Origin: a virus
Virus record (IMG/VR): IMGVR_UViG_3300036760_000327
Coordinates: 42,487 to 106,486 of that record
Length of the DNA: 64,000 bases
Strand: one strand, 5' to 3'
Part shown: positions 1,279 to 61,976 of the stretch, piece after piece
Position numbering within the stretch: the first letter of the stretch is position 1
Layout: each line of letters begins with the position of its first letter
Translations under genes and position numbers: made by a program
The notes under the pieces: model-generated
Told to the model about the DNA's origin: nothing
The model's database searches: none
The model's input: the letters and a program-made list of their open reading frames with translations, nothing else

Positions 1279-1799
1279 TTTTTAATTCCATTCTTCAATG
1301 CGCTTATTACAGAAGAAGATGGCATGGAAGTTCTGCCTAAACTATACCTCATAAAACGGGCTCCAAACCAAAATGCCAAAATTGTCGATAGTACAGCAAA
1401 GTCTTCGCTGTTCCATATTTGCGTTCCGACTTCGTTCCATTTGGCCCCTGCTTGAACTAAAGAATAGATTAAAGAATATTTAACGTACATATAGAGCACC
1501 ATAAAACCGTATGTGATCGTTGGACGTACTGAGGAATTGTATAATGATACGATTCCATCAATCCAGCGAACACCAGTGATCTTTTGTTCTGATGCTTTAT
1601 AGATCGCTTCTGTTTCAGCTATATCAGCCTGCGCACCCAACTCCTCTAGTTTAATCTGGCCCTGTAACTTCGCGGCTTCCATCTGTAATTTTCCCATCTC
1701 TATTTCATGTTTATGATCTTCTTTATTGTTCCAAAATTTCAAAATTTCGGGCAATAATGAACCTAACAAACCAAATATAGTACCTAAAAGTGTTAGCAT
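1275..1799 (-). CDS. holin-like membrane protein
   Basis: N-terminal hydrophobic segment, 'VRPTITY' plus TM helix and 'FWFGAR' motif; directly upstream of the lysozyme. Confidence 0.65.
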   Translation of the reverse strand: MLTLLGTIFGLLGSLLPEILKFWNNKEDHKHEIEMGKLQMEAAKLQGQIKLEELGAQADIAETEAIYKASEQKITGVRWIDGIVSLYNSSVRPTITYGFMVLYMYVKYSLIYSLVQAGAKWNEVGTQIWNSEDFAVLSTILAFWFGARFMRYSLGRTSMPSSSVISALKNGIKK

Positions 1800-39580: not shown

Positions 39581-40150
39581 TTAAATCTCCGATATATGTT
39601 TCTCCTTTTTATGAGCACCAAGTTCAATACCACTTCTAAATATTTCCCCGCAACCAGGAACAGGACATGTAAAAACCTTTTTAGGTTTTTCTGCCTTAAC
39701 TTCCGGCGTGGCAAGTAACCGATCTAATTTTTCGGATAAAGAATTAAATTTCTCGCCAATCTTCTTGTCAATAATTTCTTCAATATTAACCACCGGATCT
39801 GGAACTCTTGCGGGAATATGAGATCTGGCCGCACTCAATAGAGGAGCAGATGCTGAATTAATTGTTGCTACAGCACCCGTAATCATCTCAATCGCAGGTT
39901 TAAAATATTCTGGATGAGCAATCTTCCATTCTTTCTCGTCCTCTACTGCTGCAAACTTGATATTACAATAATCGTGCTTAAGCATTAATGCAATAGTATC
40001 AGGATCTTCAATCTCTATTCTTCCATTCATAAATTCGACTGTTTTTCCTGGAATTTGTACCCGCTGTCCATTAGCATCTAAAATATAAAAAGCGGGTTTC
40101 AATATTACTCGTAATCGTTTTGCTTTTGCCATAAAAATCATCTTTGTCAC
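39581..40150 (-). CDS. protein with C-terminal C2H2 zinc finger
   Basis: 'FTCPVPGCGEIFRSGIELGAHKKEKH'. Confidence 0.6.
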   Translation of the reverse strand: MTKMIFMAKAKRLRVILKPAFYILDANGQRVQIPGKTVEFMNGRIEIEDPDTIALMLKHDYCNIKFAAVEDEKEWKIAHPEYFKPAIEMITGAVATINSASAPLLSAARSHIPARVPDPVVNIEEIIDKKIGEKFNSLSEKLDRLLATPEVKAEKPKKVFTCPVPGCGEIFRSGIELGAHKKEKHISEI

Positions 40151-40159
40151 CGTTTCCTT

Positions 40160-40549
40160 TCACTCACCCATATCATCTCTTTTTAAGAGGTTTAGGCGCG
40201 TTTTTAATGGTTGTACATAATCTTTAGGATCGTTGGTTGTGAATTTAAATTCTTGAAATTCGATACCAACTTCTGCCTGGTCCCTTTTGATAATCAAATG
40301 TGGAAGCATAATTTTTAATAGTCTATATGCTTGTTCATCTTTCCATTTTGCCCTAAATTGTCCCCCAGAAATTCTACCAATAATAGCATCAAACATTTGT
40401 AAGAATTTCATAAGTTCCGTATATTTAGAGGTGATCCATACATATAATGATGAATCAGATAAATTTTTCTTGTCTACAATTATCTTGATGCTCCCATGAA
40501 TATCAAAAATTCCTGCCGTATAAGCAATTTCGGATCTATTGTACCTCAT
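40160..40549 (-). CDS. free-standing, probably degenerate LAGLIDADG endonuclease
   Basis: 'IAYTAGIFDIHG' (catalytic acidic position replaced by His) and 'LPHLIIKRDQA'. Confidence 0.65.
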   Translation of the reverse strand: MRYNRSEIAYTAGIFDIHGSIKIIVDKKNLSDSSLYVWITSKYTELMKFLQMFDAIIGRISGGQFRAKWKDEQAYRLLKIMLPHLIIKRDQAEVGIEFQEFKFTTNDPKDYVQPLKTRLNLLKRDDMGE

Positions 40550-40573
40550 ATATCCTCCATTGAATTTTAAGTG

Positions 40574-40619
40574 CTGGAGGCTTCTGCTTTCTTTCGATTG
40601 CTTTTAATGAAGCCTCCAG
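40574..40619. terminator. 11-bp inverted repeat stem-loop
   Basis: CTGGAGGCTTC ... GAAGCCTCCAG between the two free-standing endonuclease genes. Confidence 0.45.
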
Positions 40620-40641
40620 GTTAAAGGTTAAAAACTAAATG

Positions 40642-41106
40642 CTAAAGACTCAGTTTTTTAAGTTCACTAAGTTTTACTCGCAAAGATTCTCGATAAACGA
40701 TAGTATCTTCCGATAGACCACGTGCACCATTAGATGTCCCCATTAAATCCTTATGTTTCTGTAAAGTTAAGCCAACCAAGGCTTCTTCTTTCTTTACAAT
40801 TAAATAAGGTAAAATCAATGTTAACATCTTTGCTGCCTTTCGATCCATCATAACTGCAACCCAGCATCGTTTCCAATGCGGTAATTGAGATTTCGCTGTA
40901 CGCTCTCGAATATAAAATCCAAGTTCCTTAAGAAAAATCATCAATTTAGCAGATGTATTAGTAATTTGCAACTTCAATCGGTATCGCTTACTACGATAAC
41001 CTTTATTAACTTTAGCTGCATTAATTCTAATACAACCCTCGCCATCTACAATCCCCGCAAGATATATTATCTTAGTGGTCGCTTCATCCATTGTAACCAC
41101 CTCCAT
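40642..41106 (-). CDS. free-standing LAGLIDADG homing endonuclease
   Basis: 'IYLAGIVDGEGCI', 'ITNT', 'LPYLIVKKEEA'; immediately after the capsid stop codon. Confidence 0.85.
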   Translation of the reverse strand: MEVVTMDEATTKIIYLAGIVDGEGCIRINAAKVNKGYRSKRYRLKLQITNTSAKLMIFLKELGFYIRERTAKSQLPHWKRCWVAVMMDRKAAKMLTLILPYLIVKKEEALVGLTLQKHKDLMGTSNGARGLSEDTIVYRESLRVKLSELKKLSL

Positions 41107-41133
41107 AATAAAATACTCAATGATTTCAATAAC

Positions 41134-44100
41134 TTAGCCGGTTACCCCGGTCAACAACCCGTGCTTTTCTTCGTTGTGGAATTCAAATCCGACTTCGCAG
41201 ATGTATTGCAATTTGTTGCTGTCTTTTCAGACGAGTCAAACATTTCTGTTGACTTCTTAATGTTCCCATTAAGTTCGGACTGTGTCTTCTGATCATTAAG
41301 ATCTGGGCTATGTACAGTCTCTACAGGAATTATAAGATCATAAGTTCTATTAATTTTATCTACTTTTTTGATTAAAGAATTAAACGCTTTTGTATATTCT
41401 TTATCATGCACATATCCATTGTCTTTAACTAATGTATTTCTATAATTTAAGAAACTACATATCAAATCAGCAATGGATTTTTTTAAGCCCACCATACATT
41501 TCCTAGTAATGTTTAAAATTCTATGAACATCATTAAACTTTGATATTACCAAACGGTAACATTGTCTAGTTCTTAGTCCATTTGGATTGGATACTGAATA
41601 TATTTTAACTGGATGCTCTAGTTCTTTCTCAAAAACTGATTTAGCCCAATTAATAATACCTATATCAGTATTACTAATCTCTATTCCAAGATGCGGCGAA
41701 CTTAAACAATTCTCACCAGTTCGTTTGTATGGTCTGCATACTCTAATTGAACCTTCTGATTCAATCAACATGCTTAATCTGGCGACGTCTTTAAGCTTCA
41801 TAAAAAGCACCTCCTTGGCATGTCTTACGATCTGATTATTTCCCTCGGCGTTGTCCATTCTAGGACTTTCACCGATTAAATAGCCTTTTACAAGGACCAA
41901 TTGTCGATCCTTCACGAAATCGTCCCCTGGATGTTGAATATCAGCTTCCATGGTCACGTCTCTATTTTGTAAGAAACGATAGACCATTTCATCTAACTTC
42001 AATCCAAAGGCATATCCACCATAAAGAGCGGTATTGCTAACAGAACCAGCATTCTCTAACATATAATCCTTAATCAGATTCAAGGTTCCATGAGGAGAAA
42101 GGTATTGCGCTATCGCAATTCCGTACGTTCTATCTTTGGGGTACATTTGAAGTTTTCCTTGTGCCCACTGGCTGATTACTGAAATAATCAGCGGGGATGC
42201 AAACAGATAAACTTCATCTCCACCAAAGCGCGTCACTGTCCTAATGAATGCCTCAAAATCTGCTTCAGTAAGGATTCCACCCACTGCTGTAACGTTAGTG
42301 TTGATAAAGAAATCAGCTCCACCAGATGTCCGTCTAGCATGGGTAATAGTAGAATCTAATCCCGAAGAAGTGTCTTCTAATCTTTCTCCGTACAAAGCCA
42401 TTCGCTCGATGTCGCGCATAAGCTCGATGCCTTTAACTTTCCGCTCGTATGCACGGTAATTTCCGCCATCAATTGTGTTATTCTGAATCCTTAAGATTCA
42501 ACTCTTTGCATCGCTGCAAAGTTCGGACTGTATCATCATCCATCCCTAATGGAATGGATGCCTTACGTGCGGTCTCTGAGGAAATATATTTAGGTTTGCG
42601 CTGTATTTCATACCGTTCAAACCAACGATTAATTTGTTCTTCAGAAATTGTTTTTCGTAAATTCGTATAGCCTTGTTGTTGCCTCCACTTAATATATTCT
42701 AGCAAAAACATAGCTAAGTATTTCTTATTTCGCAAATAGGGTAAAATAGCATTTAAAAACTTTTTACAGGTATTTAGCCCATTTGATTCGATCTTAAGAG
42801 CCATATTCCATTTTTTATTTCTAAGATTATTCTTTTGCAAACTAAAATGAAAGTTAATGCTTAAAGCATACAAAATATTACTAATTTCCTTAATCATTAT
42901 TTCATCACAGTTCGTAACAGAAATACCTGTCGCTATCCATCCATATTTATGACCGGATGATTTATCCATATCTTTCTTTCTGAAAAACATGATGGAACCT
43001 TCTCCATCAATAATACCAGCTAACCAAGCTAAATCGGTATCTTTTATAATCATTTTATATCTCCTGCTGATTAACCCCACCTTTCTCTTTTACCAAACAG
43101 GTGGAAAGGATACTGGGTTTTTCCAGCATTTTATAAGGTTTTCATTATATCATTACTGATATACGCTGCATGCCTTATACAGCTCGGAATTTAACATAGT
43201 ATTAGTCACCTCAACGGATTTTCTAATAGTCTGTAAATAGTTATAGACTCTTGCGGCTTTGCGACTCTTTGTATAAAGAGCAGTAGAAGGAGATCCTTCT
43301 TCAAAGGCTGCACCGATGATCACCATCGTTGCTGCATTGGCTGCCGAGGCCGCGGCTGTAGCACCATAAGCTCTAATAGCTGTTACAGCGCACGCTGCTG
43401 TAGCTGTTACTAAAATAACTTCGCCGGTTGAAGGAATTTTAACCAAGTCATACTTGTTAAAATAATTACCTTCGCCCGAGGCTACAGTTAATCCAGTAGC
43501 TGCTGACGTAGCAGAAGCTGCTAATGAAGACCAACTCGGATTAAGATCCAGATGTGTATTCTAGTCATTACTGACTAGCTCGGACTTTATCATCATCTTG
43601 CGATGTTTCACGTAAAGTCTCTGAGGAACGGAGTTTTGTCAAATCAAGTACGCTATTAGCCAATCGTGGAAGATGTAACATATTATATCTTTCTGCTTTT
43701 GCGAGTTTATGTTTCTCTATTAACTGATTAACATAATCTCGATCAATATAATCTTTATATCTCCCATCAGGTCCGCGGTTTTTTATTAATTGTTCGCGAT
43801 AATTTGCGTATTCTAGCATGATATCTACTTCTGCTTGTTTGGTTTTTAAGTAAGGACGTATCATTTCTATTAATTTTCTACAACTCCCCGTACTATTACA
43901 AACTATTGTAATAGCATGATTTTGTTTACCGTGTAAATTATAAGCATTAATAGTATAATGAAATTTTAGTCCTAACTTATGCCACATTTCACTAACAGCT
44001 CTAATCATATATGGATTAGTATTACAAACCGTAACTATCATAGAGATAAATGTTGCCATATCACTCTTATTTAATTGTTTTCTTGATTGGTAACACAACA

Positions 44101-44840
44101 TTAAACATCCTTCTCCTTCTATGATAGCCGCTAGCCATGCTTTATCTTGCTCTGACAACATATAATTTCCTTTCCTGCTGATTGTCCCGCCAAAGGAATT
44201 GTCACATAATGTATCCTTGACATAGGAGTTTCCAGCATATGGTGAAATTTTATGAGAACAATGTTGTTTATTCTCAGGCCATTCTACTGTAGTGTTGATG
44301 GCTACCCTTTTGTTAAGCTTTGAAACCAAAACGTACAAAGGCATAAATGTTAACTGCAATTTCGTATTACGATTATTTTTGCAGATCAGACTGTCGCATC
44401 ATCTTTCGATGTCTCCTCGCTCAGTCGTTCACGGTGCTTTCGCTTCCGCCCTGTTGTCCATCTCTGGATGTCCAAGTCAATCAGAGGAGATTTATAGCGG
44501 CCCGCTTTGTCAAGCCGCCTCTGGCTGTAAAAGATAAATTTTATCCAAATTTGTTAATGATTTCAATAAGTTATGAAATCATGCTTGCTCATTTCTGTCA
44601 AGCTCTGCATATTCATTTATATGCAGTTCAGACTGTCGCTTCTACTTTCGTAGTCTCTCCACTCAGTCGTTGCAACTGCACGGCTTTCGCCTGCTTGTTG
44701 AGGGTTGCCATCTCAGGTGTTCCCCATTAATCAGGAGAGATTTTATATGACCAAGTAGTTTACCAAGCCATATCCACCACACGTAGATTTGACAATATGT
44801 TTTGTGAGCCTGTTCCGCCCGTTACCATTGTTGCTGCCAT
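41134..44840 (-). CDS. major capsid protein (SU10/DUF5309-like), six exons, 395 aa after splicing
   Basis: Exons 44840-44766, 44545-44513, 44341-44270, 43548-43179, 42469-41907, 41208-41134 total 1188 nt in one frame. Junctions read VVDMA|DKIYLLQPEAA|PLYV...VEWPEN|DLNP...SELY|GGNYRAYERK...MRDIERMALYG...FVKD|QYICEVGFEFHNEEKHGLLTGVTG*. RBS AAGGAGG; follows the scaffold gene. Confidence 0.88.
41151..41801 (-). CDS. intron 5-encoded LAGLIDADG-like endonuclease
   Basis: 'ARLSMLIESEGSI', 'ISNTD'; own RBS AAGGAGG; in frame with exon 5 and runs past the 3' splice site. Confidence 0.75.
   Translation of the reverse strand: MKLKDVARLSMLIESEGSIRVCRPYKRTGENCLSSPHLGIEISNTDIGIINWAKSVFEKELEHPVKIYSVSNPNGLRTRQCYRLVISKFNDVHRILNITRKCMVGLKKSIADLICSFLNYRNTLVKDNGYVHDKEYTKAFNSLIKKVDKINRTYDLIIPVETVHSPDLNDQKTQSELNGNIKKSTEMFDSSEKTATNCNTSAKSDLNSTTKKSTGC
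41209..41906 (-). mobile_element. group I intron 5 of capsid gene (698 nt) with LAGLIDADG-like ORF
   Basis: P1 AAGGAU/GUCCUU with U-G at the splice site, P3 GGCUAU/AUAGCC, P7 GACUGU/ACAGUC, terminal G. Confidence 0.88.
42470..43178 (-). mobile_element. group I intron 4 of capsid gene (709 nt, phase 1) with LAGLIDADG ORF
   Basis: P1 GCUGU/GCAGC places the splice site inside a Tyr codon (T|AT); P3 CCUUAU/GUAAGG; 'CUCAGAGACCG...ACAGUCCGA' core; terminal G. Confidence 0.88.
42478..43053 (-). CDS. intron 4-encoded LAGLIDADG endonuclease
   Basis: 'LAWLAGIIDGEGSI', 'LPYLRNKK'. Confidence 0.85.
   Translation of the reverse strand: MIIKDTDLAWLAGIIDGEGSIMFFRKKDMDKSSGHKYGWIATGISVTNCDEIMIKEISNILYALSINFHFSLQKNNLRNKKWNMALKIESNGLNTCKKFLNAILPYLRNKKYLAMFLLEYIKWRQQQGYTNLRKTISEEQINRWFERYEIQRKPKYISSETARKASIPLGMDDDTVRTLQRCKELNLKDSE
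43549..44269 (-). mobile_element. group I intron 3 of capsid gene (721 nt) with LAGLIDADG ORF
   Basis: P1 GAGAAU/GUUCUC, P3 UUUCAC/GUGAAA, P7 GACUUUA/UAAAGUC, terminal G. Confidence 0.88.
43568..44161 (-). CDS. intron 3-encoded LAGLIDADG endonuclease
   Basis: 'KAWLAAIIEGEGCL', 'IRPYLKTK'; in frame with exon 3. Confidence 0.85.
   Translation of the reverse strand: MLSEQDKAWLAAIIEGEGCLMLCYQSRKQLNKSDMATFISMIVTVCNTNPYMIRAVSEMWHKLGLKFHYTINAYNLHGKQNHAITIVCNSTGSCRKLIEMIRPYLKTKQAEVDIMLEYANYREQLIKNRGPDGRYKDYIDRDYVNQLIEKHKLAKAERYNMLHLPRLANSVLDLTKLRSSETLRETSQDDDKVRASQ
44342..44512 (-). mobile_element. group I intron 2 of capsid gene (171 nt, no ORF)
   Basis: P1 GCGGCU/GGCCGC, P3 UCUCCUC/GAGGAGA, P7 GACUG/CAGUC, P8 CAUC-GAAA-GAUG, P9 CUGCAA/UUGCAG, terminal G. 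Confidence 0.87.
44546..44765 (-). mobile_element. group I intron 1 of capsid gene (220 nt, no ORF)
   Basis: P1 AUAUGGCU/GGUCAUAU, P3 UCUCUCC/GGAGAGA, P7 GACUG/CAGUC, P8 CUAC-GAAA-GUAG, terminal G. Confidence 0.88.
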
Positions 44841-59845: not shown

Positions 59846-60016
59846 CTATATCTTTATCTTTATTTTAGGAAATATTGATTTGAATTTTCGTTGCACAGGC
59901 GGCTTCAATGCAATTGAAAGTTTCTCAGCCTTTGGTTCCTTTAGCGGCATCTTTGGCAATTTTATCTTTACCTCTTGAAGCCAAGAAATATCTTTATTTT
60001 TATCTTTAAAAGCCAT
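59846..60016 (-). CDS. 56-aa Lys/Pro-rich protein (not in ORF track)
   Basis: MAFKDKNKDISW...IKIKI*; TAATG coupling to the upstream ORF. Confidence 0.5.
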   Translation of the reverse strand: MAFKDKNKDISWLQEVKIKLPKMPLKEPKAEKLSIALKPPVQRKFKSIFPKIKIKI

Positions 60017-60228
60017 TATTTTTTCCTCTTTTTATATCCGGCTTCCGCAGCGTTCCAATATGCTTCTCCAGCAACTTTTTTTGCCCTTGCTTTACTTAAT
60101 CCACCAGCCTCTGCTTTCTGCATAATATCTTCAAATGTAGATGGCTTCATAATAACCCCTGGTTTTTGCCGGCTCCGCCAGGCCAACATATCCTTACCTT
60201 GCCTAGGTTTCGGTTTTCCTCGTGCCAT
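60016..60228 (-). CDS. small basic protein
   Basis: RBS AGGAG; Lys/Arg-rich. Confidence 0.6.
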   Translation of the reverse strand: MARGKPKPRQGKDMLAWRSRQKPGVIMKPSTFEDIMQKAEAGGLSKARAKKVAGEAYWNAAEAGYKKRKK

Positions 60229-60244
60229 TTTATCCTCCTAAATT

Positions 60245-60433
60245 TTAAATCCTGGGATTTACTACTTTGCTTTTTCTTTTTGCTTGAACAAATTTTATTT
60301 TTATTCCATTATTTCGTCCCTGATACTTAGTGCTATCGCTTCCCGCAATATCGGGTCGCATCAGTATCGTTTTTGTGTTCTCGGGTCCAGACGTGCTTAA
60401 ACCGCTAAACCCCCTACCATGTATATGTGCCAT
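60245..60433 (-). CDS. small basic protein
   Basis: Abuts the protease stop codon; basic C-terminus. Confidence 0.5.
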   Translation of the reverse strand: MAHIHGRGFSGLSTSGPENTKTILMRPDIAGSDSTKYQGRNNGIKIKFVQAKRKSKVVNPRI

Positions 60434-60434
60434 A

Positions 60435-61310
60435 TCAATCAGTATCCAGCCAGCGTTTTATTTCATCTATTCGAGTGAAATAATAATGTACTTCCTTGTC
60501 TTTCAAAAAAATAGCCCTTGCAATACCAACAATCACTGGTGTACCATTCTGATAAACAAACACTGGCGATCCAGAATCTCCAGGAATTAATGGTACATCA
60601 ATAGTAACATCGTACACATTAAACCAGGGCAAGACTTGCGGCATTGAACATGTAGCATAAATGTTTTCTATCTTTCCAGATCTAAGTTCATATAACCATG
60701 TTTTTTGCCCTTCTTCATCTCTTTGAGACACGAGTACAGAAACTGCATCACCTATTTTTAAAACCAAATTTGGATCAGATGTACTAAAGGTATAACTAGT
60801 ATTATATTCTAGTGCAGCCAATCTTTTGGACGGAGCATTTAGTTCCAATATGGCCATATCGTTAGCCAGATCAGTCCATACTATTTCAGCCGTAAGATAA
60901 GGAGAATAAGTATCACCAATAAATATTATTCTTTGTATAATTTTAAATGATCTTGTAATAAAATAAGAAGCAGGATTTTCGGATGGTACAGAAACTGTAG
61001 CGGGTTCTATAACATGAGCAGCCGTTATAATATATAATTTACCCTTTTGGCTTTTTACCACAAATCCAGTACCTTGCATATCGAATATACCTTGTTGCCA
61101 AATTAAATCAATTTTATTCGTTTTTGAATTGTAAACTGGAACTGATCCCATGGCAGAACCGAATGTATAAATATTTACCACGGATCGAGATAAATAATAT
61201 GATCTGTCTTCTTCAAATTCTTTAAATTTACCATGTGTAGAATCAAAAGCAACAACAGTTGCTGTCAATAAAAACAAGGCAACAACGACAGCAAAAATTT
61301 TTTTAAACAT
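60435..61310 (-). CDS. trypsin-like serine protease with signal peptide
   Basis: Triad motifs 'TAAHV', 'DMAIL', 'GDSGSP'; N-terminal 'MFKKIFAVVVALFLLTATVVA'. Confidence 0.85.
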   Translation of the reverse strand: MFKKIFAVVVALFLLTATVVAFDSTHGKFKEFEEDRSYYLSRSVVNIYTFGSAMGSVPVYNSKTNKIDLIWQQGIFDMQGTGFVVKSQKGKLYIITAAHVIEPATVSVPSENPASYFITRSFKIIQRIIFIGDTYSPYLTAEIVWTDLANDMAILELNAPSKRLAALEYNTSYTFSTSDPNLVLKIGDAVSVLVSQRDEEGQKTWLYELRSGKIENIYATCSMPQVLPWFNVYDVTIDVPLIPGDSGSPVFVYQNGTPVIVGIARAIFLKDKEVHYYFTRIDEIKRWLDTD

Positions 61311-61437
61311 TTTTCTTATTGGTCCTCTTGGATTTTTTCTTTCGCTTTTTGCTAACAATTTTCCATGCCATATCTGAAATTTTTAAATTTGGTAAAATAT
61401 TTTGAGTTCCGGTTGCTCCGGTTACCATATTGGCCAT
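61303..61437 (-). CDS. 44-aa capsid N-arm paralog with basic tail (not in ORF track)
   Basis: MANMVTGATGTQNILPNLKISDMAWKIVSKKRKKKSKRTNKKNV; RBS AGGAG; aligns to the capsid N-terminus. Confidence 0.7.
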   Translation of the reverse strand: MANMVTGATGTQNILPNLKISDMAWKIVSKKRKKKSKRTNKKNV

Positions 61438-61502
61438 ATTAACTCCTAATTTGCCCCTTGCCCACCCTCGCCCTTTATTTATCTAATTTATGGGCTACAC
61501 TC

Positions 61503-61976
61503 TTATTTATGTTTTTTATTTTTAATACTCTTGAACATTTTTAACTGGCCTATTCTTTTATCCGCAGCAGCCGCAGAAGGATATACTTTTGGGAGTAATT
61601 TTCCCGACTCTAAGCGAATTTTATAACCGTCTTTAACCTTTACTTTCATAATATGCTCCTTCTTTATCTTTAGTTGATTTCGTCTGTCTTCATAAATAAC
61701 ATTTCTAAGGGTTTTCTTAGTAATTCCAAGTAGTTGTGATATTTCTTCTCTAGTAAGTCCTTTCGCAATTAGCGTCCCTATCTGTTCTTTTCTAGGCAAT
61801 TTATATAATTTATATAAATATCTACGTATCAATTTATCATCTAAATCAACATTACCAAAAGTAGGTGTTCCTATTGCAATTTCTTTAAGACCAACCCAAT
61901 CTTGATCAGCAAATACTTCGGCCTCAGGACATAATGAAGTACAAAGATTTCGTTTACTGCATTCTTGACAAAGCAA
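61503..61976 (-). CDS. HTH (sigma region 4-like) protein with N-terminal Cys motif; possible internal start at 61649
   Basis: 'CQECSKRNLCTSLC' and 'GLTREEISQLLGITKKTLRN'; RBS AAGGAG before internal MKVKVK. Confidence 0.55.
   Translation of the reverse strand: MLCQECSKRNLCTSLCPEAEVFADQDWVGLKEIAIGTPTFGNVDLDDKLIRRYLYKLYKLPRKEQIGTLIAKGLTREEISQLLGITKKTLRNVIYEDRRNQLKIKKEHIMKVKVKDGYKIRLESGKLLPKVYPSAAAADKRIGQLKMFKSIKNKKHK

Follow-up and report, generated by a model that had tools for sequence, protein, structure and literature searches.

A small phage gene, very probably a partial duplicate of the major capsid gene, joins a copy of the capsid N-arm tip to a poly-basic tail

The stretch of DNA analysed here (hereafter the window) makes up the right end, 64 kb in length, of an IMG/VR phage genome (G000) of 106,486 bp with direct terminal repeats, and every long gene in it lies on the minus strand. 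Its head module includes a portal and a capsid of the SU10 type (Pfam PF23899 and PF17236). The nearest cultured phages are very distant, the portal being about 22% identical to those of cyanopodoviruses; the capsid is 24-26% identical to the capsids of two cultured phages, and the closest solved structure to it is the capsid of Vibrio phage VP1 (9in6, E 1e-23). No tRNAs were found in the window, and a search with Rfam at the gathering scores reported no RNA families across it, group I introns included. The relative that serves for most comparisons below, G001, is the 110-kb record IMGVR_UViG_3300031949_000008.

At 61303..61437 on the minus strand lies a small gene of 44 codons and a TAA stop, residues 1-28 of whose product copy the tip of the capsid N-arm, while residues 26-44 form a poly-basic tail with K or R at 12 of its 19 positions. 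A Shine-Dalgarno-like AGGAG, read from the sequence (61443..61447, minus strand), stands 5 nt before the ATG at 61437, which bears out the good ribosome-binding site claimed in the preliminary description of the locus. The same description regarded the ORF as uncalled. This is not wholly so, as a public protein set contains a 41-aa call for this contig that begins at the second ATG. We favour the first ATG because of the AGGAG site and of the N-termini in the protein family described below, which have two to four residues ahead of MVTG. The 44-aa protein has no match in Pfam at E up to 0.1, SU10_MCP (PF17236) included, and no usable match in the ESM Atlas; blastn searches with the locus and tblastn searches of cultured phages with the peptide gave no matches either.

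The 5' leader of the small gene contains a G-rich motif of four tracts (G3-4 N1-3, x4; 61454..61473, minus strand), which lies about 7 nt upstream of the AGGAG and is kept at the same place in G001 (locus L004, ~1610-1630, minus strand). Such four-tract motifs number three in G000 and one in the 110 kb of G001. From its sequence the motif is a possible RNA G-quadruplex or regulator site; the leader as a whole has no significant RNA fold (z -0.7), and no terminator was found upstream of the small gene.

Directly upstream of the small gene is the gene of p48 (61503..61649, minus strand), a conserved basic 48-aa protein that is 81% identical in G001, and a 328-nt block with 73% DNA identity between the window and G001 covers p48 and the small gene together. 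The cluster is headed by a Cys-rich protein with an HTH resembling sigma-70 region 4 or LuxR (61650..61976, minus strand). The HTH protein and p48 accompany the small gene in all three lineages where its context is known. In the window the HTH protein and p48 make up one continuous frame of 157 aa (61503-61976, minus strand), whereas in G001 and in a further relative, G008, they are separate ORFs; the continuous frame may be due either to a fusion or to an internal start at MKVKV.

On the other side, the small gene is followed by that of a trypsin-like serine protease (60435..61310, minus strand; Pfam Trypsin_2, E 1e-12), whose N-terminus has the look of a signal or anchor; the protease ATG (61310) and the stop of the small gene overlap by 8 nt (ATGTTTAA). 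In G001 an HNH gene, with a 70-nt gap, follows the small gene, and then comes a protease of the ClpP family (L004 287-1048, minus strand). G000 has no ClpP-family protease and G001 has no trypsin-like one, while both proteases bear signal peptides and are encoded just upstream of the same conserved 62-aa ORF; this slot looks like a non-orthologous replacement of an exported protease. No relative of the trypsin-like protease was found in viral contigs. Since G008 has no protease at the position of the small gene, the link to a protease is not general, and the exported proteases are unlikely to be head-maturation enzymes. From about 61382 onwards the +1 frame stays open across the A-rich lysine codons of the small gene and into the protease, so that a +1 shift within 61303-61382 would fuse the capsid-arm copy to the protease; this arrangement is not kept in G001 or G008, and a conserved frameshift fusion was rejected, as neither of the two has an adjacent protease. 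Near the small gene, other small proteins with basic C-termini are encoded besides p48, namely those of 62 aa and 70 aa (60016-60433, minus strand), and the counterpart module of G008 (L106 1249-1644, plus strand) encodes small proteins of 54 aa and 87 aa with the same feature; none of them belongs to a Pfam or PHROG family. The location of the small gene in a cluster of HTH and small basic proteins, far from the head module, would suit a regulatory or early role as well.

The template of the copy is exon 1 of the capsid gene (25 codons; 44766..44840, minus strand), whose end is fixed by colinearity with G001 and whose start (44840, minus strand) is 16.6 kb from the small gene. The template gene encodes an SU10-type capsid: its exons match PF17236, which is also carried by the intron-free homologues of 390-400 aa. 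The codon alignment with exon 1 has one gap of a single codon and identical residues at 19 of 26 positions, and inclusion of the spliced xKI raises the agreement between the small protein and the capsid to 21 of 28; the preliminary description had given about 19 of 27 positions and 16.5 kb. When the small peptide is searched by tblastn in the 106-kb genome, it matches itself and capsid exon 1 only (E 7e-8), no third copy of the arm segment being present there. Different codons are used at 10 of the 14 identical residues that have degenerate codons, and synonymous sites are nearly saturated, in agreement with the many synonymous differences remarked upon at the outset. The selection at the protein level that had been suggested on this basis is upheld by the comparison with G001, where an intact counterpart of 41 aa, 59% identical to the small protein, occupies the same place: over 36 codons the two genes give a dN/dS of about 0.27, at a dS that is close to saturation.

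As to the origin of the gene, the non-coding DNA upstream of its start is unrelated to that upstream of the capsid start, and a duplication that captured a promoter was rejected for this reason. A recent fragment of a foreign capsid gene was rejected as well, since the tail is conserved and the family extends beyond this phage. On the strength of the sequence comparisons we consider it very probable that the small ORF is genuine and originated by partial duplication of the capsid gene. The duplicated part would be the 5' end of an SU10/VP1-type major capsid gene, either intron-free or in spliced form.

The match continues beyond exon 1, as the first residues of the capsid micro-exon 2 (DKIYLLQPEAA; 44513..44545, minus strand), in the form xKI, are still recognisable in the small gene. 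The preliminary description had seen in this match across the exon 1/exon 2 junction (DMA-x-KI) a support for its splice model, and the junction DMA|DKI is confirmed by two kinds of capsid genes. The capsid of G001 has no intron 1, and its start runs uninterrupted through VVDMADKIYLLQPEAA; dozens of metagenomic intron-free capsids (390-400 aa) also read uninterrupted across VVDMADKIYLLQPEAA. Because G001 and the intron-free capsids are continuous at this point, exon 1 is placed at 44840-44766 and exon 2 at 44545-44513. Throughout this work the spliced capsid protein was represented by its intron-free homologues, and the exons of the window were not joined. The Trp that follows DMA in the small protein would also fit an unspliced read-through of the capsid gene (DMAW*); this agreement is, however, a coincidence, since the Trp is a feature of the family and is present in G001, whose capsid gene is without intron 1. 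The small gene is an independent support, at the protein level, for the exon 1/exon 2 junction of this intron-split capsid gene.

The family comprises eight clear members of 41-51 aa, two of them from phage genomes and six from metagenomic clusters (43-51 aa), the latter found by a word-index search and a full HMM search among 1.84 billion representatives. Common to all eight are the motif MVTGA[TI]GTxN[IV]LPNLR, an acidic residue at the second position after it and a tail rich in K and R; the N half is kept in sequence and the tail in charge only (alignment A4). No fused or longer form was found among the 1.84 billion representatives, except for one spurious 3,080-aa repeat protein, and when viral, metagenome and genome contigs were scanned with P0008 or with alignments of the small proteins, G001 was the only one recovered. 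It had been proposed that the ORF be looked for in relatives; it is kept in them, with neither frameshifts nor decay.

A probable ninth member, more diverged in sequence, is a 36-aa ORF of G008 (L106 1138-1248, plus strand), situated between the HTH homologue and a p48-like ORF that adjoins it, so that the gene order relative to p48 is swapped with respect to the window. G008 is a complete genome whose capsid is 58% identical to those of the clade, and an identical stretch is present in G007 (L116). The genome-wide HMM score of the candidate is not significant (E 1.6); in shuffling tests it gave z values of 5-7 with several family members and of 6.4 with its own capsid arm, and it has the derived Pro of NILP, which is absent from all capsid arms. 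In 8 of the 9 members the copy starts 2-4 residues after Met1, like the capsid's own start, the exception being P0003 with its 11-residue Ala-rich extension. The only capsids that share the NLR signature with the small proteins are those of the window's own clade. The best score of each small protein is with the capsid arm of its own lineage, a result that comes from only three lineages with unequal arm divergence.

A profile search of 50 related viral records, 8 of which are at least 90% complete and have capsid identities of about 30-58%, matched capsid N-termini only. No second copy of the arm segment was found in G005, and weak capsid-arm-like matches within other ORFs of G005 and G008 were internal and were discarded as spurious. 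As complete relatives with capsid identities of 30-57% are without the gene, it is not essential to this capsid type. By its sequence distribution the small gene is lineage-restricted, yet of an age that lets it accompany capsids with 58% identity to one another.

In the AlphaFold2 model of a near-identical intron-free capsid (A7, mean pLDDT 78), residues 1-30 are unplaced (pLDDT <50), and a helix is formed by residues 38-46, ahead of the E-loop strands. According to this model, the copied piece is the free, extended tip of an HK97-type N-arm, and the freedom of residues 1-30 is as expected of an arm that binds in trans. The small-protein family keeps the near-invariant positions of the arm, namely the I of NIL, a hydrophobic residue at VV and D or E at VVD. 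The strongly conserved arm stretch YLLQPEAAPLYVL is lacking in the small proteins: in the MAFFT alignment it falls in a deletion of 13 residues, past which their VSKKRK is paired with VSKLNKR of the arm helix. The alignment is suggestive of a descent of the basic tail from the arm helix, a chance match not being negligible in a K-rich tail. If the tail does come from VSKLNKR, the template spanned exons 1-3, that is, it was intron-free or spliced. A complex prediction for capsid residues 31-394 (A7) with the small protein (A4) had a score of 0.00 in a run without controls, which speaks neither for nor against binding.

A gene of similar design is present in T4. Residues 2-38 of gp61.1, a 54-aa 'hypothetical protein', align with residues 57-93 of gp23 at 46% identity (E 1e-9), and in a search of the T4 genome gp61.1 matches itself and gene 23 only (E 1.4e-5); in NC_000866 the two loci are L118 4967-5131 (gene 61.1, minus strand) and L121 146-520 (gene 23, plus strand). 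The aligned part of gp61.1 is preceded by an N-terminal leader, which we take to resemble the T4 capsid-targeting (head-targeting) sequence, and is followed by KKKK and a charged tail. The aligned stretch of gp23 (57-93) presumably spans the gp21 maturation cut after residue 65. A literature search found no functional study of gp61.1. Among the PHROGs, gp61.1 defines phrog_1823 (its own score 3e-33), and the long forms define phrog_2086; the proteins of the window and G001, as well as P0002 and P0008, match neither of these at E up to 1. The small-protein family has no credible match among the PHROGs in general. A weak match of the G001 copy alone to phrog_23971 was dismissed, as that family also matched 5 of 14 control genomes.

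Like the window gene, T4 gene 61.1 encodes a free-standing copy of its own phage's capsid N-arm with a lysine-rich tail. The two differ in that the T4 copy begins behind a leader and about 57 residues into gp23, whereas the window copy begins at Met1; in that the tail of gp61.1 is of mixed charge after KKKK, while that of the window protein is purely basic; and in the leader of gp61.1, apparently a head-targeting one, to which nothing corresponds in the window family. Their capsid lineages and gene neighbourhoods are different too. Since each of the families resembles its own capsid protein, T4 61.1 and the window family are not homologous, and, to judge from the sequences, the arm-plus-tail design appears to have arisen independently at least twice. 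By analogy, the T4 parallel makes a role of the window protein as a head component more plausible.

Several known systems share some of these features. The T4 internal proteins IPI, IPII, IPIII and Alt are of small or medium size, are packaged in the head by means of a short N-terminal capsid targeting sequence and are located with the DNA; this address, which attaches to the scaffold core and is removed by gp21, does not copy the capsid protein. No leader or cleavage site of this kind is visible in the window small protein. Adenovirus mu and protein VII are poly-basic peptides that neutralise and organise the genome inside the capsid, and in the coats of small icosahedral viruses a basic N-terminal arm is part of the coat protein. 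Unlike such coat-borne arms, the basic segment in the window is attached to a separately encoded arm copy, and, as these are eukaryotic viruses with unrelated folds, the analogy is functional only. The T4 vertex protein gp24 and Ccm of PICIs are full-length capsid paralogues that serve as accessory shell proteins. They resemble the window gene in that a duplication of the major capsid gene has led to an accessory protein, its head role being putative in the window; however, gp24 and Ccm keep the whole HK97 fold, and the window protein keeps only about 28 residues of the arm. CpmB of SaPI1 imitates the C-terminus of the scaffold and binds the 80alpha capsid protein via the capsid N-arm (PMC5644958). 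Like the window protein, it is small and copies the docking segment of a head-assembly protein, but CpmB is a satellite-encoded scaffold mimic that resizes capsids, whereas in the window it is the capsid's own arm that is copied, and by the phage itself.

With regard to the function, our tentative preference, held at somewhat less than an even chance and drawn from sequence features, is for a minor head-internal protein that would dock in the manner of the capsid arm and carry a DNA-binding tail. The arm-like half would use the capsid N-terminal tip's own contacts on the inner face of the shell or procapsid, and a few copies of the small protein could thereby be built into the head; the tail, kept in charge and not in sequence, would sit in the lumen and bind the packaged DNA. 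The small protein would thus be a capsid arm acting in trans. The grounds for this reading are the pattern of conservation, the free state of the copied segment, the analogy with T4 and the position of N-arms, which are generally placed on the inner shell (PMC5644958). An N half conserved in sequence and a tail conserved in charge fit a specific docking to protein and an electrostatic binding to nucleic acid, respectively. There are also arguments against a head-internal protein. In a complete lattice the acceptor sites for N-arms would already be filled by the capsid subunits, so that the docking site should be a special one (at the portal vertex, or in the procapsid only) or the docking should be competitive. 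Besides, the most conserved part of the arm (DKIYLLEPxAAPLYVL) is missing from the small protein, including a part of the helix that is bound by scaffolds in other phages.

The same sequence features would be expected of an assembly modulator, which we find rather unlikely. In this role the arm copy would compete with the capsid tip or bind the scaffold and so time, cap or bias the assembly, with effects on the choice of vertex, on size or on premature assembly, and it would not remain in the virion; the partners of the basic tail would be acidic segments of the scaffold or nucleic acid. The scaffold here does have an acidic stretch near its end, ahead of a conserved C-terminal motif, and the loss of the gene in some relatives fits an accessory regulator, but the leader of the T4 protein, if it is head-targeting, and the maturation cut site argue for incorporation rather than for mere interference. 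In other phages the C-terminus of the scaffold touches the capsid N-arm (PMC5644958); in 80alpha, however, this contact is with the arm helix, and the small protein is without the residues that lead into this helix. The concentration of conservation in the copied motif would also be explained if a shared third partner, that is, one enzyme, chaperone or host factor, recognised both the capsid N-terminus and the small protein, the latter being a second substrate, a competitor or a decoy. Examples of such a partner would be a modifying enzyme of the amidoligase or ATP-grasp type, a protease or a host capsid sensor. An exported protease follows the gene in two lineages, though the proteases are of different families; their signal peptides, however, make an action outside the cytoplasm likely, the link with a protease is absent in G008, no modification site or cleavage motif is evident, and a mimic of a sensed epitope should trigger the sensor and not block it. 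We therefore consider a shared partner improbable.

The HTH/sigma-r4-like protein and p48 are constant neighbours in three of three lineages of known context, several small proteins of the module end in basic segments, and the conserved G-rich leader suggests regulated expression; all this would be in line with a nucleic-acid-binding regulator of the HTH-p48 cluster. In this case the tail would be the working part, and the N half would be mainly a relic, in use as a spacer or an oligomerisation strand. Yet it is the N half that is best conserved across the nine members and keeps the invariant residues of the arm, while a relic would drift, and in T4 the arm-plus-tail design sits in a different neighbourhood, which makes such a regulator decidedly improbable. 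The 8-nt overlap with the start of the protease and the +1 frame open into it from about 61382 might, in their turn, point to a leader peptide or uORF, whose translation would deliver ribosomes to the protease or, after a +1 shift, fuse the arm to it. This has very little likelihood: the downstream gene differs from lineage to lineage, being the trypsin-like protease in the window, the HNH gene, with the 70-nt gap, and then the ClpP-like protease in G001, and the p48-like ORF in G008; the sequence of the peptide is under purifying selection; and in six other clusters the family exists as free-standing small proteins. Finally, the shortness of the ORF and the absence of any family annotation could be those of a remnant, left by a partial capsid-gene duplication, that is not translated or has no function. 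We find this hardly credible in view of nine intact members with the same architecture, accompanied by capsids that diverge down to 58% identity, and of the absence of frameshifts, the low dN/dS ratio (~0.27) and the good ribosome-binding site.

Gene callers, proteomics and symmetry-averaged cryo-EM routinely miss small phage proteins, and the window family and T4 gene 61.1 may, by analogy, mark an overlooked kind of small head protein. A broader generalisation, which in our opinion is doubtful, is that free-standing copies of the capsid N-arm with a charged tail form a class of small head proteins that has evolved repeatedly and independently among tailed phages, and whose members would occupy the arm-binding sites of the inner shell and serve to tether the DNA or to neutralise it. 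Such proteins would act without processing in the SU10/VP1-type lineage and would be encoded behind an N-terminal leader in T4-like phages (gene 61.1). Were it true, this class would be a missing minor component of HK97-fold capsids, overlooked by proteomics blind to small proteins and by symmetry-averaged cryo-EM. Capsid inventories and models of DNA organisation in HK97-fold heads would need an extra player if these proteins are head components. That T4 61.1 has this architecture without being related in sequence suggests a general solution, reached by evolution more than once, and T4 is a tractable model for the possible roles of arm copies, such as DNA anchoring, charge neutralisation, vertex filling and control of assembly. 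The family is also a clear case of a gene newly formed from some 28 structural-gene codons and a simple charged tail, and it has persisted in phages with a capsid identity of only 58%.

One more feature of the window concerns the capsid gene itself (39849-44840, minus strand), which is interrupted several times in comparison with its intron-free homologues, though Rfam reports no intron in it. The capsid gene of G001 (L003) is without intron 1 of the window, without the HNH-bearing insertion and without one LAGLIDADG-bearing insertion, and it has a LAGLIDADG insertion of its own after exon 2. The insertion of G001 that follows L003 10514 contains a 95-nt piece 82% identical to intron 1 of the window. 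The intron complement of the capsid gene thus differs between close relatives.
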